64,000 nucleotides of DNA from Candidatus Omnitrophota bacterium. GTDB taxonomy: Bacteria; Omnitrophota; Omnitrophia; Omnitrophales; Aquincolibacteriaceae. Position 1 is the stretch's first letter. Each line of letters starts with the position of its first letter. The stretch spans positions 21,499-85,498 of the forward strand of contig JAUYMS010000040.1 of the NCBI GenBank assembly GCA_030698625.1. The letters are read 5' to 3'. The translations under genes and the position numbers were made by a program. The notes beneath the pieces were generated by a model. The model saw nothing but the letters and a program-made list of their open reading frames with translations. It had not been told where the DNA came from and did not search any database. This document shows, piece by piece, positions 4,630-60,488 of the stretch.

Positions 4630-5479
4630 GCCTCTTGAGCAATTTCATTATTTTCCTGGGCATTTGTGTTTGAGCGGCCTTCCACTTCTTTTCCTCCGGT
4701 GTTGTCTCAACCCAAGCGACATGCCGCTGCATACCTTTATAATGCGGATTGGGGGTCCTGTTTAAGGCATAATAATAAACGGCCAATGAGTTCCTTCTCC
4801 GGCCTTCGGGACAGGTCAATGGCTGCGGGTGCCCATGGTAGGAATACGTTCCCGTATCAAAAATAACGCAGCGATTATAAATCGGCAGAATCCGTTTTTC
4901 GCACTGAGTCGCATCCCGGTTCCATAATTCAAGATGGCCGCCGTACTCTTCACGCCAATCTTTGTTCAAAAATAGAATCAAGTTATAACGCTGATGAATC
5001 ATATCGCCGCTTTTAATGGGATGCCGGTTCGTGTCGGTATGAATCATGAGCTTGCCGCCGCGGCCCGTCGAGTGAAGGCCGCAGCCATTAAAAGAGGGGT
5101 CGACCAGTAAGTCAGTAGCCCTTGTCAAAGACTTGAGGAAGCGAAGGAATGTGCTGGAAATGAGCTGGCCCATAAAATGACGCGTGAAAGGGCCGAATTT
5201 TGCATCATTCGCTACGCCCACCTTCTCAATATTCTTGTCGCCCGTATTTTCGGTCTCGCCGGGCCCCCAGAGTTTCCATTTGATTTGATTGATCGCTGGG
5301 AACTCATCGACGGCAATATCCAGTATTTCAGGAGGCATAAAGTTGTCGATAACGACATGCGGGAAGGGCTTGGCGGATGCGAATTCGTCTCGATACTTGT
5401 CCGCAACTTGCAGCAATTCTTGTGCGTCGAAATAAAAAGCCGGTATCTTTTCCGTAGGAATTGACGTGATTTCAGGCAT
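4613..5479 (-). CDS. 2OG-Fe(II) oxygenase (prolyl-4-hydroxylase-like)
   Basis: HxD...H iron triad: LMIHTDTNRH followed by the distal YSYHGHPQP. Length and layout fit the P4H/PF13640-type fold. It is convergent with ORF1 and overlaps it by 17 nt. Confidence 0.55.
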   Translation of the reverse strand: MPEITSIPTEKIPAFYFDAQELLQVADKYRDEFASAKPFPHVVIDNFMPPEILDIAVDEFPAINQIKWKLWGPGETENTGDKNIEKVGVANDAKFGPFTRHFMGQLISSTFLRFLKSLTRATDLLVDPSFNGCGLHSTGRGGKLMIHTDTNRHPIKSGDMIHQRYNLILFLNKDWREEYGGHLELWNRDATQCEKRILPIYNRCVIFDTGTYSYHGHPQPLTCPEGRRRNSLAVYYYALNRTPNPHYKGMQRHVAWVETTPEEKKWKAAQTQMPRKIMKLLKRLTPKR

Positions 5480-5499: not shown

Positions 5500-6354
5500 A
5501 TGAAGATAAAGCGCAAAGCTCAAAAAATACTCAGAAACTCAGTCAAACAACTGTATAGCACCGCTTCTATTAGGCGGTCTCTCATTCGTTTTGCTGTTGC
5601 CAGGCTAAGCGGGGACTATAGAGCGCGTCTCTATGCGGAGGCATTAGAGCGCCCTCATTACGGGTATTGCGTCTACAATGCGGCACTTCTGGCTAAAAAG
5701 CTCGGGCATAAGCGGATAAGCATTTTAGAATTTGGGGTTGCCGGAGGGGAGGGGTTGCGGAGTCTGGAATATCACGCGACTCAAGTCAGCCGTCTCTTAT
5801 CCATAGAAATCGAGCTCTATGGTTTTGACACAGGCACCGGCTTACCGGACCCTGTGGATTACAGGGATCTTCCATACCACTGGCAGGAGGGGTTCTTTCG
5901 CATGGATGTGGAGAAATTAAAGGGGTCGTTGAAGCGCGCGAAACTAGTCGTCGGCGACATTGCGGATACAGTTAAAACTTTTACCGCGACTTATAACCCT
6001 GCGCCGATTGCCGCAATTATGTTCGATCTCGACTTTTATTCCTCAACGACCGCCTCTTTTGAGATATTCAACATCCCGCGATCTTACTATCTTCCCCGCG
6101 TGTTTTGCTATTTCGACGATGTTCTCGGCGGAAACGTGGAGCTTTACAACAGCTATACGGGAGTCCTTCTGGCGATCAAGGAATTCAACGAGGGCCGGGA
6201 TGAGAAAAAGATAGATCGGGCGCATTACTTGCTGGCTAAGCCGCTGCAGAGTAAATGGTATCGGCAGATCTATGTTTTTCATGATTTTGCGCACGAGTCC
6301 TATAATTCGTTCATTGGAAAGCGAAACCCGCAGCTTTCTCTAAAGCCCGTCTAA
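5500..6354 (+). CDS. TylF/MycF-family (macrocin-O-MT-like) SAM methyltransferase
   Basis: LEFGVAGGEG...YGFDTGTGLPD...FDLDFYSST...FDDV aligns with the tandem TylF-like ORFs at 22169 and 22912 (LEFGV..YGFDTFTGLPE..HIDCDLYSST..FDEY). Confidence 0.55.
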   Translation: MKIKRKAQKILRNSVKQLYSTASIRRSLIRFAVARLSGDYRARLYAEALERPHYGYCVYNAALLAKKLGHKRISILEFGVAGGEGLRSLEYHATQVSRLLSIEIELYGFDTGTGLPDPVDYRDLPYHWQEGFFRMDVEKLKGSLKRAKLVVGDIADTVKTFTATYNPAPIAAIMFDLDFYSSTTASFEIFNIPRSYYLPRVFCYFDDVLGGNVELYNSYTGVLLAIKEFNEGRDEKKIDRAHYLLAKPLQSKWYRQIYVFHDFAHESYNSFIGKRNPQLSLKPV

Positions 6355-6492: not shown

Positions 6493-6519
6493 CATGTAGT
6501 CAAGTCGAGACTTGACCCC
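6493..6519 (+). repeat. REP-like hairpin element, copy 1 (catgtaGTCAAGTcgagACTTGACccc)
   Basis: 7-bp stem GTCAAGT/ACTTGAC with a 4-nt loop. The same 27-mer recurs at 15747, 22142 and inverted at 21080. Confidence 0.6.
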
Positions 6520-6532
6520 TTCGAAAGGATGT

Positions 6533-7633
6533 ATGAAGAAAGCGCTGATCACGGGTGTTACGGGGCAGGACGGGAGCTATCTGGCGGAATTTCTGCTCAG
6601 TATGGGCTATGAGGTTCATGGCTTAAACCGGCGGTCGAGTTCTATTAATACGCAGCGCATTGCGCATCTGATAGATGAAGAGGACACCACCAATGAGCGG
6701 TTCTTTCTTCACCACGGTGACCTCGGCGATTCAGGAAAGCTCCTCGATCTTGTCCATAATGTAAAGCCCGATGAGATTTATCATCTCGGGGCACAGAGCC
6801 ACGTCAAAGTCAGCTTTGAAATTCCGGAGTACACCCTCGATGCCAATATCCTGGGCACGGTGAGGTTGCTCGAAGCGGTACGGCGCAGCGGCCTCCAGAC
6901 AAAGATTTATCAGGCATCGTCCAGTGAAATGTTTGGAAGCACCCCGCCGCCGCAGAATGAACAAAGCCCTTTTCATCCCCGTAGTCCCTACGCCGTCTCC
7001 AAAGTTGCGGCGTACTGGATCATGGTGAACTATCGCGAAAGTTACGGCATGTTTGCCTCCAACGGAATTCTTTTTAACCATGAGTCTCCGCGCAGGGGAG
7101 AAACCTTCATCACCCGAAAGATTACCCGCGCCGTAGCCCGCATCAAAAAAGGGCTTCAAAAGAAACTCTATCTGGGAAACCTGGAAGCACGCCGCGACTG
7201 GGGCTTTGCTCCCGAGTATGTCGAAGGCATGTGGCGTATCCTGCAGTTGGACAAGCCCGATGACTTTGTCATAGGCTCCGGTGAGACGCACAGCGTGCGC
7301 GAATTCGCGGAGGCTGCCTTTTCTTACGCGGACATGGATTGGCAGGAGTACGTCGAGGTGGATCCGCGGTATTTTCGCCCGGCCGAGGTGAACAACCTCG
7401 CCACCGAAATGGCAAAGGCGCGGGACATGCTGCATTGGCAGCCGCGCATCAAGTTTCAGGATCTCGTTAAAATTATGGTCGACTACGACCTTGAGTCTCT
7501 TGGACTTACTGCCAAGGGCGAGGGCAAAAAAGTCCTCCGGAAAAAGATGCTCTGGCTTTCTGAAAAACAAAAGTTTGAAATCTTCCAAAAGGATCTCGAA
7601 GAGGCGCTCTCGACACACAAGAGAAAGTCTTAA
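6533..7633 (+). CDS. gmd: GDP-mannose 4,6-dehydratase
   Basis: [22 protein letters not shown], a YAVSK catalytic Y/K, ~366 aa. RBS aaagga sits 7 nt upstream of the ATG at 6533. The track start at 6512 is probably too far upstream. Confidence 0.9.
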
Positions 7634-7636
7634 ATT

Positions 7637-9622
7637 GTGAAGAAACTCACCATCCAAATGCTGCAACCCAACAGCGCGTACGGCAAGCAGCAGTACCTAC
7701 CTTACAGTGTTGGCATGTTGATATCCTACGTGCAGCAATATCCCGATCTCTACAAAAAGCTCGAATTCCGGCCTCTGCTTTACAAACGTGACAAGGTCGA
7801 ATCGATTGTCGGCCAGATCGGCGAGGTGGATGTGTTGTGTCTGTCGAGCTATATTTGGAATTTTCGTTTAAATATGGCAATCGCTTGTGAAGTGCGCAAG
7901 CGTCAGCCCGGTTGTCTTATTGTTGTGGGCGGACCTCATGTGCCTGACCAAATCGAAGGCTTCTTTGAGCAAAATCCCTTCCTTGATGCGGCCTGTCACC
8001 GCGAGGGGGAAAAGACGTTTTGTCATGTGCTAAAAGCCATTACCAAAGACCAACCCCTCAATAACATTGACGGCCTCTCTTATTACGACCGCGCAACCGG
8101 AGAAATTTTCAAGAACCCCATGCGGACGCGAATCGAACATCTTGACGAAATCCCGTCGCCCTATTTGACCGGAGTTTTTGACCACCTTTTCCGGCCTGAC
8201 AATGATGTCGAGTGGCAGGTGATGTGGGAAACAAACCGCGGATGCCCGTTTACGTGCACCTTTTGTGATTGGGGTTCTGCCATTGCAAGCAAGGTGCGGA
8301 AATTCGGCATGGACCGGCTGCTGGGCGAGATTCAGTGGTTTGCGGATCATCGTGTCAGCTGGGTATTCGGCTGTGACGCCAACTTTGGGATTCTCCCGAG
8401 AGATAAAGAACTTGCGGCGGCGCTAGCTGAAGCCAAAGAGAGAACCGGCTACCCCCACCAGTTCCGAGTGTGCTTCACGAAGAACAGTAACAATCGTGTT
8501 TTTGGCGTCGCCAAGATCCTGCATGACGCTCACATGTCAAAAGGGGTGTCGCTCAGTATGCAGTCTCTCGACAGCGAAACCCTGGCAAACGTGCGGCGCG
8601 ACAACATCAAGCTTGAGGTCTTCCATGAATTGCAGGCCCGTTATCTCGAAGAGGGCGTCGCTACATTCTCCGAGCTCATCATCGGGCTACCCGGCGAAAC
8701 TTATGAGAGCTTCAGAAACGGTCTGGATGTTTTACTCGACCAGGGGCAGCATAGCGGCATCAATATCTATAACTGTTCGGTCATGCCGAACGCCGAAATG
8801 GGAGATCCTGAATATCAGAAAAAATACAAATTACGAATGGTGGATCAGCCGATTTTTCAGGCGCATGCCGCCCGGCTCGCAGATGACGTCATGGTCGAAT
8901 ACGAACCGATTGTGATAGAGACTCACAGCATGACCGTCGCCGACTGGAGGCGCATCTATCACTTTGCTTGGGCGGTGCAGTGCTTTCACTTACTCGGAAG
9001 CCTTCAGGCCGTCAGTGTACTTTTAAGGAATAGGTACGGCGTGCGGTACAGCACTTTTTACGAAGCTGTTATTGAATTCGGGCAGAGAAATCCCGGCAGT
9101 GTTTTGAACAGCGAGATGGGGATACTCGACGGAGTGCTCGATAATATTCTTTCAGGCACGGGCTCAGATCAGTACCTGACGGAGTTTCTCGACATCACCT
9201 GGCCGCCGGAAGAAGCGTCCCATTTGCGTTTTGCAAAGGATATCGACGGCTTTTATCGCGAGTGCCGCCACTTTCTCGATGAGTTTCTCCTTGCGCAAAA
9301 AGTCGACATGCCTGAGGCTTTAAAAGATGATCTTATGCGCTACCAGCAAGCGACCTTAGTGCATTACGATCGCCGGAACGACGTTACTTTAAATCTTAGA
9401 TATAATCTTGATGAGTATATCAAGGGTTGCCGCAAGGGAAATTCTGTAGCCTTCGAAAAAGGAGATTTTAAATACAAAGTAACGGCCACGCATAAACTGG
9501 AGGGTGATGCCGAAAAGTTCGCCCGTGAGGTGGTTTGGTACGGAAGAAAAGGCGGGAAATTCATTTACCCCGTGGAGCGAGTTCATGCGGATGATTTTGC
9601 ATCCATTGGGAGAGGCGTGTAG
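7637..9622 (+). CDS. Cobalamin-binding radical SAM protein (class B, 661 aa)
   Basis: N-terminal B12-binding-like region (VLCLSSY...VVGGPHV), then the CxxxCxxC cluster [16 protein letters not shown] start. About 250 aa of C-terminal extension. Confidence 0.8.
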
Positions 9623-9624
9623 CC

Positions 9625-10062
9625 ATGGGCGCAGACCCAAAAACCGTGTATGTCGCGATGGCCGCGGACATTCTTCACCCCGGTCACATGAATGTGATCA
9701 AAGTTGCCCGGGAATACGGTGATATCGTAATCGGCTTACTCACGGACAAGGCGATCGAGGAATACAAACGGTCGCCATGGATGAAGTACGACGAGCGCAA
9801 AGCGGTCGTAGAAAATATTAAGGGAGTCAGCCGCATTATGGCGCAGGATTCACTGGACTATGTGGCCAACCTGCGGGCGCTCAAGCCCGACTATGTCGTG
9901 CACGGGGATGACTGGAGGAACGGCGTTCAAACTGAAACTCGGCAGAGGGTCATCGATGCGCTTAAGGAATGGGGCGGGAAACTTATCGAAACGCCCTATA
10001 CGGCGGGGATTTCTTCAACCGCCCTTATGGAAAGAATGCGAGCCCGGGCGTCGGCGCTTTAA
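9625..10062 (+). CDS. TagD-like cytidylyltransferase (HxGH nucleotidyltransferase, 145 aa)
   Basis: [10 protein letters not shown] (HxGH), GDDW and GISST resemble glycerol-3-phosphate cytidylyltransferase. The Fom1 cytidylyltransferase domain is of the same family. Confidence 0.7.
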
Positions 10063-11684
10063 TACTTCAGGGCACTCCACTTCTTTTCAGTATAGGCGCG
10101 CGTATCGTTCTTATTGAACTCGTAATTATACTTCGCAGCGAGCTCTGCAATTTCCGTTCCCCTCCACAGCCCCGGGACATCAATCAGGCCCTGTTTATAG
10201 GACATACGGAACAGATTCACTGAAGGATCAATGAACCCTTGGCGCACGCACTCCGTTAAAAGCTCCGAGCCTACGATCGGAACCGCAGCAAAGAAAGACG
10301 CACTGCTAAATTCACACTCCTGAGCAAAACGGTAGGTTGTTGCCATCTCTTCAAGGGTCTCGCCTTCATGCCCGAACATGGGCGGCATGCCGATGATGAA
10401 GTAGCCGTGCACGTGAAGACCGATCTGGCGGGCATATTTTATAAGGTGTTTAGTCTTCTCGAGATCAAGAGGCTTCTTTATGAGCTGGTCAAGGACACGC
10501 TGCACACCGCTCTCGATCGCGAACGTCAGCTGATAGGCACCGGAGGCCACCATCAAATCGAGTAGCTCTTCATCCATTCGCCAGAGCGCCGTGCCTTGCG
10601 GGGTTTGCCAAGGCAGGCCGATCTCCCGAAAAGAACGGAAAAGAATTTTCGCATGTTTCATGTCGTTGGTGATGTTGTCATCCTGAACATGGAACTCATT
10701 GATGCCGTACTGTTCCTTCAGCGCAATGATCTCTTCGACCACGTTCTCGGGACTGCGCCGCCTGAGTTTATTGCCCCAAAAATTGGTCGTGGTGCAAAAG
10801 GTGCAGTGTGCGCTGCATCCGCGGCTCGTGTAAATCTGTGCGACTCGGTCGCCCTTCGTGTAGGGAGACTGATAGGCGCGGTAATCAAAATATTTTTCCA
10901 TGTCATAAAGATGCCACGCGGGAAAGGGGATCTGATCCAATTCAGACCAATTATTCAAATCGTTCTTGGACCGTGAACTTATGAGCACGTTTTCGGAATT
11001 GATCTTGATTTCATCGCCCTGACGAAAAGCGATGCTCCCGATCTTTTCGACATCGTAGTTACCGTTAAGATGTTCGAGATATTGGAGAAACGTCAATTCC
11101 GACTCGCCCAAAAATACGACATCAAGATTAGGATCCGAGAGGCAGGCTTTGGGAAAGTAACGGGCATGAGCGCCGCCAATCGCCGTAACCACCCCGGGCT
11201 TGGCTTGTTTGGCAAGCTTCAGGAGGTTTTGGACATTGTCAGCTTGATTGCTGAAGATGCTTGAGACCCCAACGACGTCAGGGTTGAACTCGCGTATCGC
11301 CTCGATAACCCCTTCATCGTGAAGTCCGTAACTGATGAAGTTTCCCTCCGCATCAATGGGAATACCGTCATTGTAACCCTCAGCAAAAACATCAAGAATT
11401 TTGACGGTGTATTCATGATTCTCCAGCACGGCCGCGATGTAGCCGATGCCGAGGGGATAGGTGCATCTGGGGTAATCGTTTTTGAAGAGGGTCGCGGCCG
11501 GATTAAGAAGGAAGACGCGGTTAAACTTGCGGCGATGGGGGGAAGTTATAGCCTGGGGCATTGTGACCCATTTGCCGACTTTTGGGGTCCCCGGATCAAT
11601 CTCTTGCTTCCCGAGAGACCCCACCGTTAGACGTTGTTCATAACTCATGGTGGGCATTATAGGGATTCCTCGGCTCATTTCCAA
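10059..11684 (-). CDS. Cobalamin-binding radical SAM protein (541 aa)
   Basis: B12-domain-like N-terminus (VVGVSSIF...AIGGAHA), then [14 protein letters not shown] (CxxxCxxC). Its stop overlaps the cytidylyltransferase stop by 4 nt; the two genes are convergent. Confidence 0.8.
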
Positions 11685-11736
11685 GGAGTGTTTTGTAACA
11701 TATTGTTATGAAATGAGTTAGGGGTAGTTTTAAGGC

Positions 11737-11765
11737 TTTGACGGTGTCGCCTATATTCGCTATCA
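11737..11765 (+). promoter_or_regulatory. Sigma70-like promoter TTGACG-17-TATCAT for the pepM operon
   Basis: ttgacg (11737-11742), a 17-nt spacer, then tatcat (11760-11765), inside the 100-bp divergent spacer. Confidence 0.35.
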
Positions 11766-11784
11766 TAGGCACCTATTCCACCGA

Positions 11785-13500
11785 GTGCCGGAGAGGGGCT
11801 ATCGTCCTATAATGAACAGAAAAACCACCCAACTGCGCCAGCTCTTTTCGCGGGGCGGCATCATCCGCGTTATGGGAGCGCACGACGGTTTAGGTGCGCG
11901 CCTCATCGAGCGCAATGGTTTCGATGCCGTCTGGTCGAGCGGACTGGAAATCTCCACAGCGCATGCACTCCCCGACGCCAATCTCCTAACCATGACTGAG
12001 AATCTGGCTGCAGCACAAGGCATTAACGATGCCACCCATCTACCCGTCATCTGCGATTGCGATACCGGATACGGCAACTCAACCAATGTCATGCACATGG
12101 TTAAGAAATACGAAGCTGCCGGACTGGCGGCCGTCGTGATTGAAGATAAACGTTTTCCTAAAATAAACAGCTTTATTCCCGGCAGACAGGAACTTGCAGG
12201 GATCCATGAATTCGCAGGCAAACTTCAGGCGGCAAAGAGCGTTCAAAATGATCCTGATTTTATGGTCATTGCGCGCACCGAAGCGCTCATCGCCGGATGG
12301 GGAATGGATGAGGCATTGCGGCGCGCGATTGCCTACGAGCAGGCGGGCGCGGATGCGATTGTCATTCATTCCCGGTCCCGCATGCCGGACGAAGTCTATG
12401 AATTTGCTTCTAAGTGGAAGGGGTCGGTTCCCTTGATCGCCATCCCCACGATGTATCCCGATGTGACCGCAGCTCAACTTGAAGCCGCCGGTTACGGCAT
12501 GGTCATCTATGCCAATCACGGTCTACGGGCATCGATACGCGCCATGGATGAAGTCATGCGACTGATTGCGGAAACGGGATCTTTGACCGCCGTTGAGGGA
12601 AAGATCGCCGGGATGGATGAGGTTTTTGAAATTCAGCGTATGACTGCCATGCGGGAAGACGAGAAGAGATTTACGGGAAGGGAGTCGTTAAATGCTGTGA
12701 TCCCGGCGGCCGGCAATCACGCCCTCGAATCCGATTTGGGAGATGTCCTCGGAGACAAACCCGTTTGCATGCTGAATGTCGGCGCCAAAACACTCATTGA
12801 CCGGCAGACGGATCTATTGCGCTCGGCGGGAGTCAGCGACATTTGGATCGTGGGCGGTCATCAGCATGACAAAATCCGCTCCGATGGTTCTCATATCATT
12901 CACAATCCCCGATACGACACTTGTCATAATGCCTACTCACTGATGCAGGCCGAAGCGCATATGGGGACACGATGCGTCGTGGCTTATTCGGATATCATTT
13001 ATGATCGCCAAATTCTTAATCATCTGCTCATGAGTCCGCATGACATTACACTCGTTATGGATCGTGCGTATCAGACGCTTCCGGCGCGAGATAAAAAACA
13101 TGATTTGGTGATCGCAGAAAATTCATCCGTGGGGTTTGAGTCGCGGCGGCTCGACGCCAGTCTCTTCCTTCCGGTGCGCCGTATCGGAAAGGAACTCGAC
13201 AAGGCTCGGGCCAATTATGAATTCATCGGACTGGCCTTATTTCAGGGGCAGGGCATTCATGAACTGCGAGCGGCCTGGCGTGACGCACTATCGAAATTCC
13301 GGGACAAGCAGTTTAACGAGGCCCCCTCGGCCGAAAAGGCTAGTTTGCCGGACCTGATTCAGTATCTCATTGAACGCGGTGCCGGCGTGTATGGCATGCA
13401 GATTGAGCACGGCTGGTCCGAGATTCAATCGAAAGAGGACTACCGCCGCGTAGACTCTTATTTTCAGCCGTCTTCGGCTCAGCCGTCTCAAGTCGTATGA
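11785..13500 (+). CDS. pepM: Phosphoenolpyruvate phosphomutase fused to a C-terminal nucleotidyltransferase domain
   Basis: PepM signature VVIEDKRFPKINSF (EDKxxxxxNS) and the isocitrate-lyase/PEP-mutase fold motifs in aa 1-290. Aa ~300-571 has VIPAAG...GDKP...VGG, an NTP-transferase-like fold. An alternative start is the ATG at 11812 (MNRKTTQLRQLF). Confidence 0.85.
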   Translation: MPERGYRPIMNRKTTQLRQLFSRGGIIRVMGAHDGLGARLIERNGFDAVWSSGLEISTAHALPDANLLTMTENLAAAQGINDATHLPVICDCDTGYGNSTNVMHMVKKYEAAGLAAVVIEDKRFPKINSFIPGRQELAGIHEFAGKLQAAKSVQNDPDFMVIARTEALIAGWGMDEALRRAIAYEQAGADAIVIHSRSRMPDEVYEFASKWKGSVPLIAIPTMYPDVTAAQLEAAGYGMVIYANHGLRASIRAMDEVMRLIAETGSLTAVEGKIAGMDEVFEIQRMTAMREDEKRFTGRESLNAVIPAAGNHALESDLGDVLGDKPVCMLNVGAKTLIDRQTDLLRSAGVSDIWIVGGHQHDKIRSDGSHIIHNPRYDTCHNAYSLMQAEAHMGTRCVVAYSDIIYDRQILNHLLMSPHDITLVMDRAYQTLPARDKKHDLVIAENSSVGFESRRLDASLFLPVRRIGKELDKARANYEFIGLALFQGQGIHELRAAWRDALSKFRDKQFNEAPSAEKASLPDLIQYLIERGAGVYGMQIEHGWSEIQSKEDYRRVDSYFQPSSAQPSQVV

Positions 13501-14606
13501 TCGAATCCGGCACGTTCGTGCAACAACTCAAGAATGAAGGTTTTCGTTTTTTTACGGGCGTGCCTTGTTCCTTCTTTCAATCTGCGATCAACGCTGTGGT
13601 TGACGACAAGTCTTTGAAGTATGTCACCGTACCAAACGAAGGCGCGGCCTTGGCTGCGGCATCGGGCGCCATACTTGCCGGAGAACCCGCTGTAGTCCTA
13701 ATTCAGAACTCCGGTTTTGGCAATTTGATCAACCCGCTGACATCGCTGAATATGATTTATGGGCTGGGTGTTCTTATATTTATCAGCGGGCGCGCCTATG
13801 GCGTCGCCGATGAACCGCAACACGAAATTATCGGTAAGTCTATGGCAGGAATGCTCGACGCGATGGGTGTTGCTTTCGAAGACCTGCCTTCCGAGCCCGA
13901 GGCGCTACGGTCTGCTTTGGGACGTGCGCACCTGTGGATCCGGAACGAAAAGCAGCCCTTTGTTTTCTTTGTGCGCAAGGACACCCTTTTGGAATACGCC
14001 GGGCCATCCGGCAAAGACGTCTACCCGCTAAAACGAATTGATGCCATAAAGATCATTGCGGAATCGATAGGGGACAATGACTATGTCGTTGCGACCACGG
14101 GCAAGCCGTCACGCGAACTCTTCAAGATCAAGGATAGGGTCCGCAATTTTTACATGCAGGGTTCCATGGGGCATGCGGCGGCAATTGGTTTGGGGGCTGC
14201 ACTCAGTCGTCCGGATGAGAGGATTATCGTCCTGGACGGTGACGGCGCCATTTTGATGCACCTCGGTATCCTCTCTTCGATTGGGCATTACCGGCCAAAG
14301 AACTTCTATCATATTGTTCTCGACAACGAGGCTTACGAATCAACGGGCGGCCAAGATACGACCTCTGCCTCCTCCGATTTGTGCGCTGTGGCGCATGCAT
14401 GCGGCTATGTTTGGACTAAAGAAACGTCTACAGCAGATGAGTTAAAGCGCAGCCTTGAAGAGCTCAAAGGAATTGAAGGGCCGTGTTTTTTAAGAGTTAA
14501 GATCAACCGTATTGCTACACCCGATGTCCCGCGCATATCGGGAAAGCACAGTTCACGTGATATCGCCTCGCATTTCTCCGAAGAACTGGCCAGGGGGCGC
14601 ACTTGA
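13497..14606 (+). CDS. ppd: Phosphonopyruvate decarboxylase (ThDP-dependent)
   Basis: 369 aa. ThDP motif LDGDGAILMHLG...NEAYESTGGQ. ATGA overlap with pepM. pepM-ppd synteny is canonical. Confidence 0.8.
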   Translation: MIESGTFVQQLKNEGFRFFTGVPCSFFQSAINAVVDDKSLKYVTVPNEGAALAAASGAILAGEPAVVLIQNSGFGNLINPLTSLNMIYGLGVLIFISGRAYGVADEPQHEIIGKSMAGMLDAMGVAFEDLPSEPEALRSALGRAHLWIRNEKQPFVFFVRKDTLLEYAGPSGKDVYPLKRIDAIKIIAESIGDNDYVVATTGKPSRELFKIKDRVRNFYMQGSMGHAAAIGLGAALSRPDERIIVLDGDGAILMHLGILSSIGHYRPKNFYHIVLDNEAYESTGGQDTTSASSDLCAVAHACGYVWTKETSTADELKRSLEELKGIEGPCFLRVKINRIATPDVPRISGKHSSRDIASHFSEELARGRT

Positions 14607-15739
14607 GTTGCGCTTACTGGAATCCTACGCGCCGTCTCATAGAAGAAGGTGCCCTCGACAAACTGGCTGAAGAACTATCAGCTTCCGGTGCCGCAAAGGT
14701 ATTGGTCGTGCTCGGCGAAAAATCATTTCGTAAGTCGATTCGCTACACAAAACTGCGCGATACGTTGGAACACTTTTCCCTTGTCGAATCTGAGCCCGTC
14801 GTCAAAGACCCTTCACTGGTATTCGCACAGTCATTTGCCGAAAAGTATCGCGGCAAGGCTATTGATAGCGTCGTGGCAATTGGCGGGGGCAGCGTCATGG
14901 ATATGGCGAAACTGACGGCGCTCCTGCTCAATCAGCCGGATGACACGTGGAACACTTTTTGGCGTGATCCGGTGGTACCGATTGAGTTTCCAAATGCGTC
15001 ACTCCCGCTCGTCGCGGTTCCTACAACGGCGGGCACGGGGAGCGAAGTCACTCAATACGCCTCTTTTGAGGATCACCAGCATCAAAAGATGAGCTTTGCT
15101 CACCCTTATCTTTTCCCAAAGCTTGCGCTCGTGGATCCTGAATTGGCCGTTTCGATGCCGCCTGCGATTACGGCCTCGACAGGATTTGACGCACTATCGC
15201 AAGCGATCGAGGCCTATTGGTCCATCCATCATATGCCTTCCTCAGACACCCATGCACTGCGGGCTATCCCGTTGGTTTTAGAACAGCTTCAGCGTGCCGT
15301 CGAAAAACCTGCCGATAGGGATGCTCGTTTCGCCATGGCAATTGCAGGCAACGAGGGGGGCCTAGCCATCGCACAGACACGGACGACAGCAGTTCATTCG
15401 GTTTCTTATCCCATGACGACGATATTTCACGTGCCGCATGGCCACGCTTGCGCCTTGACGCTTGCCTCATTCGTACGGTTCAACCAGGATGCGATTGAGC
15501 ACGAGCGAGCCGCCGCACTTTGGAGAGCTCTCGGGGCGGAGAACGCTGAAATGGCCGCTAAGCACATTGAGGGCCTTATGGATAATGTCGGACTCGAGCG
15601 CCGACTGAGTCAAGTAGGCATTGATGAGGAAGGACTGGAGTCCATTGTAAAATATGGGTTTAGACCGGATCGTGTAAAGAATAACCCAAGAGAACTCAAT
15701 GCCTCTCAATTAAGAACAATGCTTGTGGAAATTCTTTGA
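14603..15739 (+). CDS. Iron-containing alcohol dehydrogenase (phosphonoacetaldehyde reductase candidate, FomC/PhpC-like)
   Basis: Fe-ADH family: GGGSVMDMAKL. Positioned directly after ppd. TTG start overlaps the ppd stop. Confidence 0.7.
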   Translation: MSCAYWNPTRRLIEEGALDKLAEELSASGAAKVLVVLGEKSFRKSIRYTKLRDTLEHFSLVESEPVVKDPSLVFAQSFAEKYRGKAIDSVVAIGGGSVMDMAKLTALLLNQPDDTWNTFWRDPVVPIEFPNASLPLVAVPTTAGTGSEVTQYASFEDHQHQKMSFAHPYLFPKLALVDPELAVSMPPAITASTGFDALSQAIEAYWSIHHMPSSDTHALRAIPLVLEQLQRAVEKPADRDARFAMAIAGNEGGLAIAQTRTTAVHSVSYPMTTIFHVPHGHACALTLASFVRFNQDAIEHERAAALWRALGAENAEMAAKHIEGLMDNVGLERRLSQVGIDEEGLESIVKYGFRPDRVKNNPRELNASQLRTMLVEIL

Positions 15740-15746
15740 CGCGAAA

Positions 15747-15773
15747 CATGTCTTCAAGTCGAGACTTGACCCC
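15747..15773 (+). repeat. REP-like hairpin element, copy 2
   Basis: catgtcttcaagtcgagacttgacccc, 8 nt after the ADH stop. Identical to the copy at 22142. Confidence 0.6.
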
Positions 15774-15838
15774 TCGTGATTTTTCGCTAGACTATACGAA
15801 ATCTTCAGTTATGGCGACTGGAACCGATATAAAGAGAT

Positions 15839-17377
15839 ATGACTAAGAGCGCTGAAAAACCTACGATTTGCCTGATTATACCCCCGTCGATTTTTCTGTT
15901 GGACGAGCGGGTCTTCATTAGCGTCGGCATTCTCAAGATTGCGGCGGTTCTAGAGAGGGAACATTACCCTGTGGACGTGCTAGACCTCTCGGGCGTTGAA
16001 AACTATGAAGCCGTTATTGAAGACCACATTAATAACAGCCCGGCCCGAATCTTTGGCGTTACGTCGACAACCCCGCAAATGCCGGCTACCGCGAGAATCG
16101 CAAGGCTAATTCGTAAGCTCGTTCCTGAAGGCAGATTGATTCTTGGCGGACCTCACGCAACGTTGGTCCATTCTGCTTTCAAGAAGGAAAGCATCGAAGG
16201 GAAAAAGGGGCGGGGAACAGTTGCTATGGATAGCATTCTAGCACTCTATGACGTTGCCGTAGTCGGTGACGGTGAAGACGCCATCTTTGAAGCCATTGCT
16301 GAAAATCCGTCGCAGATCGTGGACGCAAATGACCGCACATCCAGGCTTTTTTTGACTAACCAAAGATATGACAGCCTTCCGTTTCCCGCGCGCCATCTCA
16401 TCGATATCGACAGCTATCATTATTTTATAGAGGGACATCGCACGACAAGCCTTATTGCTCAGCTTGGCTGCCCCTTTGAATGCGGTTTCTGCGGGGGACG
16501 GCAATCGCCGATGTTGAGAAATATCCGTATGCGCAGTATGGACAGCATCATTGAAGAGATGCGGCACATCCATGTCACCTACGGGCATACCGGATTCATG
16601 TTTCACGATGACGAACTTAATGTGAATCCGAAAATGATCGAGCTTATGACCAAAATCGTTGACCTGCAAAAGGAACTCGGGGTTGATTTTCGGCTTCGCG
16701 GGTTTGTTAAAGCGGAACTCTTCAATGACCGGCAGGCGGAAGTGATGATGAAGGCCGGTTTCCGCTGGCTCCTGACCGGTTTTGAATCGGGAGACCGCAG
16801 GATCTTGACGAATATTAACAAAAAGGCGACCCGTGAAGACAATTCGCGCGCCGTACAGATCGCCAAAAAACAGGGCCTTAAAGTTAAAGCGCTTATGTCT
16901 ATCGGGCATCCCGGCGAAAGCGAAGAGTCCGTCATGGCCACACGCGACTGGCTACTTGAAGCAGAACCGGAGGATTTTGACGTCACCATTATTACCACTT
17001 ATCCGGGCACGCCTTATTATGATTTTGCCGTACCGCATCCGGAAAAACATGGGATCTGGGTCTACACCTACAAGAAAACAGGGGACAAGCTCTACAGCCT
17101 TGAAGTCGATTACAATGAAGTAGCCGATTACTACAAAGGAGATCCTGACGGCGGCTATAAATCGTATGTGTATACCGACCACTTGAGTCAGAATGACCTG
17201 GTCGATTTGCGTGATTTTGTAGAAAGAGATGTTCGGGATCGCCTTGAAATTCCTTTCTACGCTGGTTCGCCCAGCATCCGCTATGAGCACTCTATGGGCC
17301 AATTCGGCAAACAGCTCCCGCCCAATATCCTAAGGCGTTCCGGCGGGGGTGCCCATGAAAAGCTGCCCGTCAGTTAG
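15839..17377 (+). CDS. Cobalamin-binding radical SAM protein (512 aa; Fom3-like methyltransferase candidate)
   Basis: N-terminal B12-binding-like region (FGVTSTTP...ILGGPHA), then GCPFECGFCGG (CxxxCxxC). Size matches class B radical-SAM methyltransferases. Confidence 0.8.
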   Translation: MTKSAEKPTICLIIPPSIFLLDERVFISVGILKIAAVLEREHYPVDVLDLSGVENYEAVIEDHINNSPARIFGVTSTTPQMPATARIARLIRKLVPEGRLILGGPHATLVHSAFKKESIEGKKGRGTVAMDSILALYDVAVVGDGEDAIFEAIAENPSQIVDANDRTSRLFLTNQRYDSLPFPARHLIDIDSYHYFIEGHRTTSLIAQLGCPFECGFCGGRQSPMLRNIRMRSMDSIIEEMRHIHVTYGHTGFMFHDDELNVNPKMIELMTKIVDLQKELGVDFRLRGFVKAELFNDRQAEVMMKAGFRWLLTGFESGDRRILTNINKKATREDNSRAVQIAKKQGLKVKALMSIGHPGESEESVMATRDWLLEAEPEDFDVTIITTYPGTPYYDFAVPHPEKHGIWVYTYKKTGDKLYSLEVDYNEVADYYKGDPDGGYKSYVYTDHLSQNDLVDLRDFVERDVRDRLEIPFYAGSPSIRYEHSMGQFGKQLPPNILRRSGGGAHEKLPVS

Positions 17378-21177: not shown

Positions 21178-22164
21178 ATGGCTCGTCCACTCCGTATTGA
21201 ATTCGAAAATGCCTGGTATCACGTTATGAACCGGGGCCGGAATCACATGGACATCTTCCGGGGTGAGCACGATTACCGCGTATTTCTTGAGATTCTGACG
21301 GAGGCATGCGGCCTCTTTAACGTACAGATTGCGTCTTACTGCTTGATGTCCAATCATTACCATCTGCTGATTCATACCCCTGAGGCAAATCTTTCGCGTT
21401 TTATGCGGCATATCGACGGGGTCTATACGCAGAAATACAACCGGTCTTATCAAAAAGACGGATCTTTGTTTAAGGGGCGTTACCGTGCCGTTGTATTACA
21501 GGTTGAAAGCTATCTGTTGCGCGTCATGCGTTACATCCATCTGAATCCGGTGCAGGCGCGCATTGTCCATGATCCTACAGATTATCCCTGGTCGAGTCAT
21601 CGCGACTATATTTCAGTCAACGGCCACCCGAGTTGGCTGCTTGTAGGTTTTATCCTTAATCAATTCTCTTCGCAATCGCACCTAGCCGCAGAAGCTTACA
21701 ATCAATTCATTACGGCAGGCATTGACAGTGAGACAGAGAAATTTTACTCGCAGGTAAAACTAAAACCAATTTATGCGGATGCCACGCGAACGGCGGAAAT
21801 TAAAGAAAAGTATCTCGCTCCAAATACCCGTGAGGTGGCTGAAATCCCTGAGAGACGCAAGATCCGCGGAGAGCAAATGGCGAGCCATATCCTGCGGGCA
21901 GTTTCACAAAACTTCAGCGTAGCAGCTGCCGGCATCAAGTCATCACGGCGAGGTAAGGAAAACCTGCCGCGTCAGATGGCGATCGCCCTTGCAAGGGAGC
22001 TTTCAGGAATGACGCATCGCCAAATCGCCGATTTTTTTAATATTAACTCCTACAAAACCGTCAATAAACATTGCGATCGCTTTGCGAGCAAGATTCGCGT
22101 CAGCGACGAACTGAGTGAACAGTACAAGCAACTGAGATCAACATGTCTTCAAGTCGAGACTTGA
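21178..22164 (+). CDS. IS200/IS605-like Y1 (HuH) transposase, REP-associated (RAYT-type), with C-terminal DnaA-C-like HTH
   Basis: HuH motif SNHYHLLIH, then YIHLNPV...YPWSS (catalytic Y region). The C-terminal ~100 aa (MAIALARELSGMTHRQIADFFN...NKHCDRF) resembles the DnaA C-terminal DNA-binding domain. Confidence 0.75.
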   Translation: MARPLRIEFENAWYHVMNRGRNHMDIFRGEHDYRVFLEILTEACGLFNVQIASYCLMSNHYHLLIHTPEANLSRFMRHIDGVYTQKYNRSYQKDGSLFKGRYRAVVLQVESYLLRVMRYIHLNPVQARIVHDPTDYPWSSHRDYISVNGHPSWLLVGFILNQFSSQSHLAAEAYNQFITAGIDSETEKFYSQVKLKPIYADATRTAEIKEKYLAPNTREVAEIPERRKIRGEQMASHILRAVSQNFSVAAAGIKSSRRGKENLPRQMAIALARELSGMTHRQIADFFNINSYKTVNKHCDRFASKIRVSDELSEQYKQLRSTCLQVET

Positions 22165-22168: not shown

Positions 22169-22918
22169 ATGGACCTAACGCGGGTAAAGAAGGGGATTAA
22201 TGATATTGTTTTTCGGTGGCTGATACGGCCGCATGTCAAGAGGTTGGTGAAGTACAGTCTCAAGGATCAGCGGAAGCACTTCCTTAAGGACAGGAAGATG
22301 CATGAGCTGCTCAAGACCCGGCTTGAGTCAATTGACCTTGAGGAGCAGCTCTTCAAGGACGCCAAGCCTTGCGGCAAGCGATTTGAACTGCTTTCGCGTG
22401 CCGTGGAGCAGGCCAAACGCTTTGACGGCGGGGAGCTCTGGCTTGAGTTCGGGGTCGAGGCTGGCGCATCCATTAATCACATTGCAGGCGAAGTGCAATC
22501 GACGGTCTACGGATTTGACACCTTCACGGGTCTTCCTGAGGCATGGAAGACAGGCCTCTATCATCATGCGCGAAAGGGTAAGCGCAGTCTTGATGCCGTA
22601 CTGCCGAAGGTGGCGTCGAACGTTGAGTTGATTCCGGGGCTGTTTGAAGACACCTTACAGCCGTTCTTAGAAAAGCATGCGGAGCCCGTCGCTTTTGTCC
22701 ATATCGATTGTGACTTATACAGTTCAACAAAAACAGTGTTTCGTCAATTAAAGCTGCAAGTCGGGAGCGTGATCGCCTTCGATGAGTATTACAACTACCC
22801 AAATTGGAGAGAGGGGGAATACAAAGCCTTCCATGAGTTCTTGGCCGAAAGCCAGATGACAGCGAAGTGCCTCGGTTTTTGTCCGCGATCGGGACAGGCG
22901 GCGTTTATCCTATGCTAA
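22169..22918 (+). CDS. TylF/MycF-family SAM O-methyltransferase
   Basis: LEFGVEAG...YGFDTFTGLPE...VHIDCDLYSST...FDEY. First of a tandem pair. Confidence 0.7.
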   Translation: MDLTRVKKGINDIVFRWLIRPHVKRLVKYSLKDQRKHFLKDRKMHELLKTRLESIDLEEQLFKDAKPCGKRFELLSRAVEQAKRFDGGELWLEFGVEAGASINHIAGEVQSTVYGFDTFTGLPEAWKTGLYHHARKGKRSLDAVLPKVASNVELIPGLFEDTLQPFLEKHAEPVAFVHIDCDLYSSTKTVFRQLKLQVGSVIAFDEYYNYPNWREGEYKAFHEFLAESQMTAKCLGFCPRSGQAAFILC

Positions 22919-60478: not shown

Positions 60479-60488
60479 GAACGTGACG

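Follow-up and report, generated by a model that had tools for sequence, protein, structure and literature searches.

Early fosfomycin-type phosphonate genes in a surface-polysaccharide locus from uncultured Candidatus Omnitrophota point to a probable 2-hydroxypropylphosphonate decoration

An uncultured Candidatus Omnitrophota bacterium probably places a so far undescribed 2-hydroxypropylphosphonate group on a surface glycan, as suggested by homology across a 64 kb stretch of its DNA (the window, i.e. the whole stretch analysed), which reads as one surface-polysaccharide locus and contains a five-gene phosphonate module at 9625-15739. This destination of the phosphonate is proposed because the early enzymes of the fosfomycin pathway lie within a glycan cluster from which the antibiotic-finishing enzymes are absent. 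We favour, with a probability of about 0.6, a scheme in which the module makes CMP-(S)-2-hydroxypropylphosphonate (CMP-HPP), which would be retained as an activated donor and used by a LicD/FKRP-type transferase to decorate the glycan; our searches found no published description of a glycan headgroup of this type. The central idea of a preliminary description of this DNA, namely that fosfomycin-type early steps without an epoxidase feed a glycan, holds; profile searches and motif reading recovered all its genes at the positions given there, and the checks on it that were run all came out in its favour.

Results

The features on which the argument is built are the following:

55-4629: 1524-aa protein with no recognisable domain
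4613-5479: 2OG-Fe(II) oxygenase, 4 kb upstream of the module
6512-7633, plus strand: GDP-mannose 4,6-dehydratase (Gmd), a context gene; TIGR01472 501.5 bits, over the cut-off of 415
7637-9622, plus strand: B12 radical-SAM A, of the TokK/KedN5-like C-methyltransferase type
9625-10062, plus strand: cytidylyltransferase, 145 aa, orthologue of the N-terminal CyTase domain of Fom1; PF01467 E 5e-16, motif HPGH
10059-11648 (ORF to 11684), minus strand: Fom3 orthologue, B12 radical-SAM C-methyltransferase; PF02310, PF04055
11649-11811: intergenic region from which the fom3-like gene and pepM diverge; one promoter-like site each way
11785-13500 (ORF; likely ATG at 11812), plus strand: PepM in fusion with an NTP_transf_3 domain, LicC/PntC-like and C-terminal; PF13714, PF12804
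13497-14606, plus strand: Ppd, phosphonopyruvate decarboxylase; TIGR03297 360.8 bits, over the cut-off of 312.5
14603-15739, plus strand: Fe-dependent ADH, predicted phosphonoacetaldehyde reductase; PF00465, PF25137
15839-17377, plus strand: B12 radical-SAM C, of an envelope-locus family of Omnitrophota, Elusimicrobia and CPR
33547-34284, plus strand: LicD-family (FKRP-like) phosphotransferase, candidate phosphonate transferase; PF04991 E 5e-13
57863-59077: Wzy_C; PF04932
59621-61838, plus strand: Wzm/Wzt ABC exporter; PF01061; PF00005 and PF14524 (Wzt_C, E 1e-21)

Besides the module, the window consists of glycan assembly and export genes: many GT2 glycosyltransferases together with GT4-, GT8- and GT15-type enzymes, many methyltransferases, four sulfotransferases, Wzm/Wzt and Wzy. 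The presence of the Wzm/Wzt exporter, whose Wzt component bears a C-terminal carbohydrate-binding domain (PF14524), and of Wzy_C identifies the locus as a surface-polysaccharide system, and this glycan context is firmly established by the gene content. The gene arrangement did not arise through an error of MAG assembly, since a 14.6 kb contig from an independent Logan assembly encodes radical-SAM A, cytidylyltransferase and Fom3-like proteins identical or near-identical to those of the window. Weak Maf/MptE-like matches were also noticed in two window proteins.

The identity of the five module enzymes is well established by homology, from which we infer their individual activities. The HxGH cytidylyltransferase, anticipated as a separate upstream gene, shares 63% identity with a Streptomyces Fom1 in residues 6-132 of the latter and matches the Fom1 CyTase domain (PDB 5x3d) with an E value of 1.7e-54, the next match being at 1e-15. 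Judged by these comparisons, this stand-alone gene, and not the domain fused to PepM, is the true counterpart of the Fom1 CyTase, and it is predicted to convert 2-hydroxyethylphosphonate (HEP) and CTP to CMP-HEP. The PepM domain (PF13714 E 2.6e-56, residues 17-261) shows the catalytic motif EDKRFPKINS, read directly in the sequence. Its fused partner is PF12804 NTP_transf_3 (residues 328-417, E 3.7e-8; LicC 1jyk, E 2e-5), the commonest fusion partner of PepM, found in 33% of Ppm (PMC6697681). The suggestion that the fusion represents Fom1 with its domain order inverted is therefore wrong, PF12804 and the PF01467 domain of Fom1 being separate families. In addition, the canonical Arg/Lys signature (AAGxGTRL...PK) is absent from the fused NTase, which has AAGNHALESDLGDVLGDKPVCM in its place, a variant conserved across a sub-family. 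The PepM and ADH proteins both score under the NCBIfam equivalog cut-offs: PepM reaches 314.0 bits with TIGR02320, slightly below 319.55, and the ADH (PF00465 and PF25137, E 1e-40; 32% identical to FomC) has as its top NCBIfam model the phosphonate-cluster TIGR03405 (Phn_Fe-ADH) with 238 bits, under the 423.7 cut-off, so that its best family model does not place it among generic sugar-alcohol dehydrogenases. The proposed translational coupling of the pepM-ppd-adh row is borne out by the start-stop overlaps ATGA (pepM/ppd) and TTGA (ppd/adh).

Three ORFs with both PF02310 and PF04055 were confirmed as B12-binding radical-SAM proteins (7637-9622, plus; 10059-11684, minus; 15839-17377, plus), and the notion that they form one phosphonate set stood for the middle one only. 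Over 535 aa, the encoded protein, whose start at the ATG at 11648 agrees with the NCBI model of 529 aa, shares 64% identity with Fom3 from a complete fosfomycin cluster of Streptomyces (L006), and as much, at full length, with that of S. wedmorensis NRRL 3426 (L019). As had been asked of at least one of the three, it falls within the bacterial Fom3 clade, its position inside the clade being weakly supported, with bootstrap values of 24-58. It scores 296.7 bits with NF038361, an NCBIfam profile it shares with authentic Fom3 (300.5 bits), and retains 274 of the 322 columns invariant across nine fosfomycin-cluster Fom3 proteins, 178 of the 182 columns invariant clade-wide (98%) and the cluster motif CSAHCTFC. 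Since a gene of this clade adjoins PepM in 17 of 17 distinct non-truncated loci, the family is phosphonate-specific. The window enzyme is predicted to convert CMP-HEP to CMP-(S)-2-hydroxypropylphosphonate. The intergenic region between this gene and pepM contains the promoter-like sites TTGACG-17-TATCAT on the plus strand (11738-11766) and TTGGAA-17-TATAAT on the minus strand (11684-11656), each with 10/12 matches, which are weak evidence because the total count in the scanned region does not exceed the shuffled expectation.

For the radical-SAM enzymes on either side, A and C, the probable target is the sugar or lipid moiety and not the phosphonate. Radical-SAM A matches TokK (7kdx) over its full length with E 1.1e-116 and CysS (9n1b) with E 5e-58, and scores 284 bits against the KedN5 family, under the 700 cut-off. 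Its nearest homologues (57-65% identity; L001/L002, L003, L044/L045) occur in polysaccharide loci where PepM is absent from the surrounding 10 kb, with Gmd close by in L001/L002, and its substrate is thus probably a sugar or glycan. In the window, Gmd, which is not a phosphonate enzyme, heads a row with radical-SAM A and the cytidylyltransferase in which gaps of 2-3 nt join the genes, its stop lying 3 nt ahead of the radical-SAM A start. The closest relatives of radical-SAM C (70-75%; L040, L041, L046) neighbour CDP-OH_P_transf, GT9, GT4, GT2 and Wzy genes and likewise lack PepM within 10 kb; on this comparative evidence the enzyme has no phosphonate link.

The noted absence of an epoxidase was corroborated, and the lack of the late fosfomycin genes is clear from the searches: tblastn (E<=1e-3) across the 64 kb returned no homologue of Fom4/HppE, FomD, FomA or FomB. 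Domain scans, which covered window ORFs of at least 140 aa, detected no aminotransferase domain, as expected if a plain 2-aminoethylphosphonate route is not in use, no cupin or sulfatase-type gene, and no cytidylyltransferase genes other than those of the module; the window has no CDP-OH_P_transf gene.

The sole phosphotransferase-type gene recognised in the window is the LicD ORF, located 16 kb downstream from the module and past an IS200-like insertion. Its family-model match is limited to the N-terminal ~50 residues, with the motif GTLLGAWRQ...DADVDI, and it resembles the catalytic domain of FKRP (6kaj) with E 1.2e-7. LicD uses CDP-choline as donor, and FKRP uses CDP-ribitol, moving ribitol phosphate and freeing CMP. 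By analogy, the window protein may take the phosphonate off CMP and transfer it to the ABC-exported glycan, both this transfer step and the acceptor being inferred; as in LicD/FKRP proteins it combines an N-terminal LicD motif with FKRP similarity, and a phosphonate donor is suggested by the gene content of the locus. None of the 46 comparison loci has a LicD homologue beside Fom3-type genes; those with such genes carry sulfatase/phosphodiesterase-family proteins in place of LicD.

Discussion

In fosfomycin biosynthesis, Fom1, Fom2 and FomC lead to 2-HEP-CMP, which Fom3 converts to (2S)-2-HPP-CMP before hydrolysis by FomD and epoxide formation by Fom4 (PMC8158854). By the scheme proposed for the window, PepM would convert PEP to phosphonopyruvate (PnPy), Ppd would decarboxylate it to phosphonoacetaldehyde (PnAA) and the Fe-ADH would reduce this to HEP; the stand-alone cytidylyltransferase would then form CMP-HEP, and the Fom3 orthologue, using cobalamin and radical SAM, would methylate C2 to give CMP-HPP. 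As FomD and HppE are absent, the CMP ester would be kept as activated donor, from which the LicD/FKRP-type transferase would most likely move the 2-hydroxypropylphosphonyl group onto a hydroxyl of one of the glycan's sugars, in the way CDP-choline and CDP-ribitol are used.

The five predicted chemical steps are shared with the early half of the Streptomyces pathway, and besides the close Fom3 and CyTase relatives, the Ppd and Fe-ADH are present. However, the CyTase is a separate gene, the PepM domain is just 38% identical to that of Streptomyces Fom1 and is fused to another NTase family, the late genes are missing and the surroundings are those of a glycan locus in an Omnitrophota MAG rather than of an antibiotic cluster in an actinomycete. 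Glycomyces and Stackebrandtia reportedly make HEP-decorated phosphonoglycans, and Nitrosopumilus maritimus is said to possess a methylphosphonate-polysaccharide cluster. These systems share with the window the PepM-Ppd-Fe-ADH route to HEP for a surface or exo-polysaccharide, HEP being kept, hydroxylated or cleaved to methylphosphonate by an Fe oxygenase; to our knowledge, and unlike the window, none of them has a B12 radical-SAM C-methyltransferase. Pnt pathways for surface 2-aminoethylphosphonate (Rice et al. 2019, PMC6697681) resemble the window in the EDKxxxxxNS PepM-PF12804 fusion, Ppd, CMP activation, nearby LicD-like and glycosyltransferase genes and the logic of activating a phosphonate before its transfer to a glycan. 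Their activation is of the PntC/LicC type; the window, in contrast, has no AEP transaminase, would proceed via HEP, would probably activate it with a PF01467 Fom1-type enzyme, would methylate on the CMP ester and has a fused PF12804 domain without the canonical signature. Radical-SAM A resembles the class B C-methyltransferases TokK, ThnK, CysS and KedN5, but lies in a polysaccharide locus and not in a carbapenem, enediyne or cystobactamid cluster.

Related loci bear on the alternatives. Epoxidase-less Fom3 clusters of similar kind occur in Nitrospinaceae, Alphaproteobacteria and Nanoarchaeota, and a Nitrospinaceae-type contig (L043) contains a glycan-type cluster of the same design, with NeuB, CMP-sugar synthetases, PepM-NTase, Ppd, ADH, a Fom3-like gene (61%), a sulfatase/phosphodiesterase-family protein, a GT1 and an ABC exporter. 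In the Nanoarchaeota loci, GT4 and phosphodiesterase/sulfatase genes adjoin the Fom3-like, Fom1, Ppd and ADH genes. L043 also carries two additional B12-rSAM genes, which, with the position of the three window genes around the module and the likeness of radical-SAM A to the iterative methylases TokK and CysS, might suggest that all three enzymes act on the phosphonate, e.g. by successive methylations. We consider this most improbable, given the PepM-free neighbourhoods of the nearest A and C homologues, in three independent contexts each, and the frequency of B12-rSAM genes in the glycan loci of the phyla concerned. The clusters that contain the nearest relatives of the window Fom3 (65-68%, L022/L042) also encode an HppE-like cupin and a FomA-like kinase, and alphaproteobacterial Fom3-type genes have a PhyH-type oxygenase gene and a gene of the EPSP-synthase/MurA family as partners. 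Both associations would fit a diffusible small molecule, either fosfomycin made by a non-homologous epoxidase, for which the upstream 2OG-Fe(II) oxygenase is a candidate, or another HPP metabolite, with the glycan position incidental. This seems quite improbable in a window that lacks a FomD-type hydrolase for CMP release, FomA/FomB-type resistance kinases and HppE, where the cytidylyltransferase is tightly joined to Gmd and a glycan-type rSAM and all else is glycan assembly and export.

Plain HEP, alone or in a mixture, is in our opinion a rather unlikely headgroup. Neighbourhoods with PepM, Ppd and Fe-ADH are established, accounting for 8.5% of ppm neighbourhoods (PMC8942020), and the NTase fused to PepM might activate HEP on its own. 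The Fom3-like enzyme would in this reading be inactive, serve only a side-fraction or act on another CMP-/NMP-linked substrate. Against it, the fused NTase is the one without the canonical signature, and the Fom3 gene shows no sign of decay and has a Fom1-type CyTase, the maker of the Fom3 substrate, as its partner. It is likewise unlikely that CMP-HPP, made as proposed, is transferred to a lipid or protein instead of a polysaccharide, even though phosphonolipids occur about as often as phosphonoglycans do (PMC8942020), the radical-SAM C family is normally found beside a CDP-alcohol phosphatidyltransferase, and the domainless 1524-aa protein and the two Maf/MptE-like matches could be read in that sense. 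Against it, the window has no such phosphatidyltransferase, Wzm/Wzt(Wzt_C) and Wzy_C are typical of polysaccharide export, and the LicD/FKRP family acts on glycan acceptors.

A predicted early fosfomycin-type module and its setting

The window is almost entirely one surface-polysaccharide locus of uniform composition (GC 0.48-0.57 across the 64 kb), and it brings phosphonate cell-surface tailoring together with the early fosfomycin pathway, both of them known systems. Its glycan genes encode many GT2-type glycosyltransferases as well as GT4-, GT8- and GT15-type ones, about 12 SAM methyltransferases (TylF, Methyltransf_24 and Methyltransf_23 types), four sulfotransferases and sugar-nucleotide enzymes (three NAD-dependent epimerases/dehydratases, a GDP-mannose 4,6-dehydratase and a nucleotide-sugar dehydrogenase). 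A LicD-family protein and a Wzy_C protein are encoded as well, and so are two ABC exporters, one of them a Wzm/Wzt system with a Wzt_C carbohydrate-binding domain on its Wzt. The elements listed in the preliminary description, i.e. a PepM-nucleotidyltransferase (NTase) fusion, Ppd, Fe-ADH, a cytidylyltransferase, three B12-binding radical-SAM genes and translational coupling, were all recovered.

Phosphonate-module, flanking and export features of the window
7637-9622, plus strand: B12-binding radical-SAM protein, here rSAM-A
9625-10062: stand-alone cytidylyltransferase, 145 aa, HPGH motif
10059-11684, minus strand: B12-binding radical-SAM ORF (fom3-like gene, 10059-11648)
11785-13500: PepM ORF, probable ATG at 11812; PF13714 (E 2.6e-56), EDKRFPKINS, C-terminal PF12804 (NTP_transf_3)
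13497-14606: Ppd, TIGR03297 above the equivalog cut-off
14603-15739: Fe-ADH
15839-17377, plus strand: B12-binding radical-SAM protein, here rSAM-C
33547-34284: LicD-family protein
57863-59077: Wzy_C protein
59621-61838: Wzm/Wzt exporter

Starts and stops overlap across the PepM, Ppd and Fe-ADH genes (ATGA, TTGA). The fom3-like gene is the sole minus-strand gene of its stretch; it and the cytidylyltransferase gene are arranged tail-to-tail, their ends overlapping by 4 nt, and it diverges from pepM across a 163-bp spacer that holds one promoter-like match per direction, the total of such matches in the scanned region not being above chance. An independent Logan assembly carries rSAM-A, the cytidylyltransferase and the fom3-like gene together on one contig. 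No cobalamin riboswitch or other Rfam family was found in the window at gathering score, and the public annotation of the window proteins reads only 'radical SAM protein' and 'isocitrate lyase/phosphoenolpyruvate mutase family protein'.

Further genes were noted around this module. Upstream of the Gmd gene lie a 1524-aa ORF (55-4629), with no Pfam match and no relative among the fetched loci, a P4H-type 2OG-Fe(II) oxygenase (4613-5479, minus strand) and a 284-aa ORF (5500-6354) weakly similar to the TylF-type methyltransferases at 22169-23676. On the other side, after a gap of about 750 bp, a gene encoding an IS200-like Y1 transposase domain fused to a DnaA_C-type helix-turn-helix (21178-22164) stands between the phosphonate-proximal genes and the remaining same-strand glycan array.

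A predicted Fom3 orthologue and its cytidylyltransferase partner

The preliminary description had placed three radical-SAM genes around the phosphonate set and asked whether any of them groups with Fom3; the minus-strand protein does. It contains PF02310 (E 5e-23) and PF04055 (E 3e-16) domains and the cluster motif CSAHCTFC (CxxxCxxC). A homology search with it retrieved relatives at about 65% identity, including one from Streptomyces sp. NPDC005181 that sits in a textbook fosfomycin cluster with the order radical-SAM gene, HTH-cupin (Fom4/HppE), DUF402 (FomD), AA_kinase (FomA), FomB, and then Fom1, of CTP_transf_like-PEP_mutase architecture, Ppd (Fom2) and Fe-ADH (FomC). The window protein is 64% identical over 535 residues to the Fom3 of that strain, and likewise 64% identical to that of the fom3 locus of S. 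wedmorensis NRRL 3426, the original fosfomycin producer. It retains 274 of the 322 columns invariant among nine fosfomycin-cluster Fom3 proteins and 178 of the 182 invariant over the whole bacterial clade, and in a neighbour-joining tree it falls within the bacterial Fom3 clade, its position inside the clade having bootstrap values of 24-58. Around its gene, those for PepM, Ppd, PnAA reductase and 2-hydroxyethylphosphonate (HEP) cytidylyltransferase all lie within 5.7 kb. Judged by its sequence, then, the minus-strand protein is a Fom3 orthologue, with a predicted activity converting 2-HEP-CMP to (2S)-2-hydroxypropylphosphonate-CMP (2-HPP-CMP). The PDB holds no solved Fom3 structure. Assignment as PhpK or as the Sden_1168 P-methyltransferase was rejected: the top NCBIfam model, NF038361 (Sden_1168 P-methyltransferase), scores 296.7 bits against a cut-off of 575 and TIGR04479 scores 57 against 600, and authentic S. 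wedmorensis Fom3 behaves likewise on NF038361 (300.5 bits), with an identical list of secondary matches.

The small cytidylyltransferase shares 63% identity with residues 6-132 of Streptomyces Fom1 and matches the structure of the Fom1 cytidylyltransferase (CyTase) domain (PDB 5x3d) at E 1.7e-54, the next structure standing at 1e-15; its HPGH is the HxGH nucleotidyltransferase motif of the PF01467 family. The N-terminal fusion to PepM seen in Fom1 is absent, the CyTase being a separate 145-aa gene and PepM, read from 11812, having no PF01467 domain. The remaining three enzymes have only distant Streptomyces relatives (38% identity between the PepM domain and the PepM half of Fom1, 36% between Ppd and Fom2, and 32% between the ADH and FomC), and the Fom3/CyTase pair therefore seems to be a unit joined to an ordinary PepM-NTase/Ppd/ADH core. 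As to the ADH, for which grouping with generic sugar-alcohol dehydrogenases had been considered, its top NCBIfam model is the phosphonate-cluster Fe-ADH, which it matches with a sub-threshold score.

The domain fused to PepM had been read as an inverted Fom1 order, PepM followed by NTase. This reading was ruled out, since the fused domain is LicC-like (1jyk, E 2e-5) and belongs to PF12804, not to PF01467, and is not homologous to the Fom1 CyTase, whose counterpart stands alone. In LicC and PntC the N-terminal signature G-x-G-(T/S)-R-L ... P-K binds the NTP, and canonical relatives of the fused domain carry AAGxG(T/S)RL...PK(C/A)M; the window signature, AAGNHALESDLGDVLGDKPVCM, contains three inserted residues, lacks the Arg and has no Lys where PK would stand. 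An exhaustive representative search with alignment placed the fused domain (12640-13497) in a conserved sub-family with AAG(D/N)H......(R/K)P(L/V)xM, again with three residues inserted and without the Arg and the Lys (relatives P0361, P0363, P0368, P0369, P0372, P0375, P0382, P0398, P0410, P0447 and P0474). Conservation of the variant signature across the sub-family suggests that the domain has kept a function, though a non-canonical one. We infer that activation would be carried out by a separate enzyme, in the window the Fom1-type CyTase. Clusters with the variant domain also encode a separate canonical NTase, and a Nitrospinaceae-type cluster (comparison locus L043) has both a non-canonical fused domain and a separate canonical NTase. 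PF12804 fusions are the commonest PepM architecture, at 33% (PMC6697681).

Cluster type and the flanking radical-SAM genes

With Streptomyces queries, tblastn over the whole window gave no match at E<=1e-3 to HppE/Fom4, FomD, FomA or FomB, and a domain scan of window ORFs of 140 aa or more found no Cupin_2, DUF402 or AA_kinase domain, nor any aminotransferase, sulfatase-family or CDP-alcohol phosphatidyltransferase domain. The preliminary description had likewise seen no epoxidase and no aminotransferase. A Streptomyces-type fosfomycin cluster is thus discarded, the epoxidase, the CMP-HPP hydrolase and both kinases being missing, and so is a 2-aminoethylphosphonate (AEP) route, for which the aminotransferase is missing; because the late fosfomycin genes and the aminotransferase are absent, the window is neither a fosfomycin nor an AEP cluster. 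It does hold the features that mark phosphonoglycan and phosphonyl-tailoring clusters as defined elsewhere (PMC6697681), namely a PepM with EDKxxxxxNS, Ppd, a nucleotidyltransferase and glycan genes including a LicD-like transferase, and in such a cluster a phosphonate would be esterified to the glycan.

The two plus-strand radical-SAM proteins stand apart from the Fom3 orthologue. rSAM-A is similar to TokK from end to end (E 1e-116), CysS being matched as well, and its nearest relatives (57-65% identity) occur in three independent polysaccharide contexts, beside flippase, DegT and epimerase genes and in one case Gmd, with no PepM within 10 kb. The family of rSAM-C is highly conserved, with 62-75% identity in Omnitrophica, Elusimicrobia and CPR; in three contexts its members adjoin CDP-OH_P_transf, GT9, GT4, GT2 and Wzy genes, and PepM is missing there too. 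Both were rejected as phosphonate enzymes on these PepM-less contexts, three for each, and judged by the surroundings of their homologues they are not likely to belong to the phosphonate pathway. In the window rSAM-A is tightly linked to the upstream Gmd gene, and a sugar is the better guess for its substrate.

The TokK-like B12-radical-SAM family (7637-9622 in the window; comparison loci L001-L003 and L044) is abundant in environmental and marine metagenomes, is found in polysaccharide loci and may perform an undescribed radical C-methylation of sugars; in L001-L003 the homologue lies directly 3' of a 229-241-aa gene without Pfam match. In two other comparison loci, L041 and L046, the rSAM-C relative is preceded by very large proteins and followed by a row of CDP-OH_P_transf, GT9, two GT4, Bac_transf, Wzy_C, GT2, HAD and MGDG_synth genes, a conserved envelope locus.

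Proposed mechanism and transfer to the glycan

In Streptomyces, Fom1, Fom2 and FomC lead to 2-HEP-CMP, which Fom3 converts to (2S)-2-HPP-CMP; FomD then hydrolyses this ester and Fom4 makes the epoxide (PMC8158854). The window module would run from PEP to CMP-(S)-2-hydroxypropylphosphonate and stop there, and, no CMP-removing hydrolase being present, its product would be an activated phosphonyl donor. The LicD-family protein (33547-34284) would then pass on the 2-hydroxypropylphosphonyl group, the acceptor being a sugar of the glycan that Wzm/Wzt exports. We infer this transfer because no other phosphotransferase can be recognised in the window and because, among ORFs of at least 140 aa, cytidylyltransferase genes are found only in the phosphonate module; in addition, the LicD-family protein shows at its N-terminus a motif that matches the catalytic domain of FKRP, which transfers ribitol phosphate and depends on CDP-ribitol. 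The transfer is nevertheless the weakest step of the scheme, the gene lying 16 kb from the module and only about 50 residues matching the family, and the link is without co-occurrence support, since no LicD homologue was found in the 46 comparison loci. We give the full mechanism, i.e. formation of CMP-HPP and its passage by LicD to the glycan, a probability of roughly 0.6, and are more confident of CMP-HPP formation than of the placing of HPP on the polysaccharide by LicD.

Two paralogous proteins of about 630 aa (23600-25483 and 47339-49261) combine Methyltransf_23 with a weak, sub-threshold MptE/Maf-like match; as Maf-type enzymes use CMP-activated donors, they are alternative candidates for the use of a CMP-phosphonate. 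The Wzt_C domain on Wzt implies that export is gated by a terminal chain cap, for which methyl, sulfate and phosphonate groups are the candidates in this locus, and in E. coli O9a the O-polysaccharide is capped by methyl-phosphate. By analogy it could be imagined, as a long shot, that HPP, rather than decorating the chain at random, is the non-reducing-end cap which ends the growth of an ABC-exported O-polysaccharide and which the C-terminal domain of Wzt reads, the TokK-like enzyme adding further C-methyls to give bulkier hydroxyalkylphosphonates. If this were true, the antibiotic route would descend from such a surface-tailoring pathway by the gain of FomD and HppE, and the puzzling 'transient cytidylylation' of fosfomycin biosynthesis would be what remains of its origin.

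The surface-attached phosphonates described so far are AEP, its hydroxy and N-methyl forms, HEP and methylphosphonate, and to our knowledge HPP has been known only as a fosfomycin intermediate. In the literature, the coverage of which was incomplete and is not proof of absence, HPP appeared only in papers on fosfomycin biosynthesis or on unrelated synthetic and biocatalytic chemistry, and no Fom3 homologue was described in a phosphonoglycan cluster; within that coverage, the earlier statement that C-methylated phosphonoglycan headgroups are undescribed stands. Should glycan transfer as proposed be true, HPP would be a new cell-surface headgroup and a cobalamin radical-SAM C-methyltransferase would work in glycan decoration, a new role for its class. 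It would also explain the CMP esters discarded in fosfomycin biosynthesis, the ester being a functional donor in these clusters, and the antibiotic pathway would look like the same module plus a hydrolase and an epoxidase.

Fom3-type loci in other genomes

A scan of GTDB species genomes and JGI metagenomes with the Fom3-clade alignment gave 33 loci, whose neighbouring genes were located by searching them locally, with tblastn, for a panel of proteins from the window and from Streptomyces. PepM adjoins the fom3-like gene in 17 of the 17 distinct bacterial-clade loci (at least 56% identity) that are not cut off beside the gene. Actinobacterial loci carry the full fosfomycin set; HppE, FomD, FomA and FomB are absent, as they are from the window, from eight distinct non-actinobacterial loci (Nitrospinaceae, Roseibium, Neorhizobium, Telmatospirillum, Vitreimonas, Bradyrhizobium and two metagenome contigs). 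The Nitrospinaceae-type row (L043) has CMP-sugar synthetase-like proteins, NeuB, a TokK-like radical-SAM protein and the canonical NTase, together with PepM-NTP_transf_3, Ppd, Fe-ADH and the Fom3-like gene (61%), and also a sulfatase/phosphodiesterase-family protein, a radical-SAM-methyltransferase fusion, a GT1 and an ABC exporter. The window design is thus one case of a wider set of epoxidase-less Fom3 clusters with a surface-polymer flavour, no description of which was found in the literature.

In Nanoarchaeota the Fom3-like gene is more distant (42-44%). Its neighbours there are a small cytidylyltransferase, Ppd, ADH, an NTase, a GT4 and a Fom1 sharing 60-62% identity with that of Streptomyces, together with phosphodiesterase/sulfatase-family proteins in one locus (L038) and a membrane PTPS-related protein instead in another (L020). 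Such Fom1 identity across domains suggests, from sequence comparison, that the module may have been horizontally transferred. Since the epoxidase-less design recurs in marine Nitrospinaceae, several Alphaproteobacteria and Nanoarchaeota, its HPP product may be a widespread, unrecognised form of environmental organic phosphorus; if this reading is true, the sequences also supply divergent variants of Fom3 and of the HEP-cytidylyltransferase for enzymological work.

Several of these loci have features of their own. DPANN-type archaeal contigs (L020/L036, L038 and L035) encode this Fom1 and the Fom3-like protein along with a second B12-radical-SAM protein, a HIT protein, phosphodiesterase/sulfatase-family proteins and GT4. 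Alphaproteobacterial loci (L005/L014 from Neorhizobium, L013, L015, L016, L017 and L032) have Fom3-like (56-61%), Fom1-like, Ppd and Fe-ADH genes, with HppE, FomD, FomA and FomB absent from all of them; L005 adds a PhyH-type 2OG oxygenase, an EPSP-synthase/MurA-family gene and a CDP-alcohol phosphatidyltransferase, and the product of such a locus could be an HPP-derived phosphonolipid or a fosfomycin-like MurA inhibitor accompanied by a resistant target copy. The nearest relatives of the window Fom3 (65-68%) are on two near-identical metagenome contigs (L042 and L022), in a non-actinobacterial but fosfomycin-like cluster with a 625-aa CyTase-PepM, an AA_kinase, a thymidylate-kinase-like gene and a cupin that shares 35% identity with the C-terminal half of HppE; type IV secretion genes directly adjoin this cluster, which may therefore be on a mobile element.
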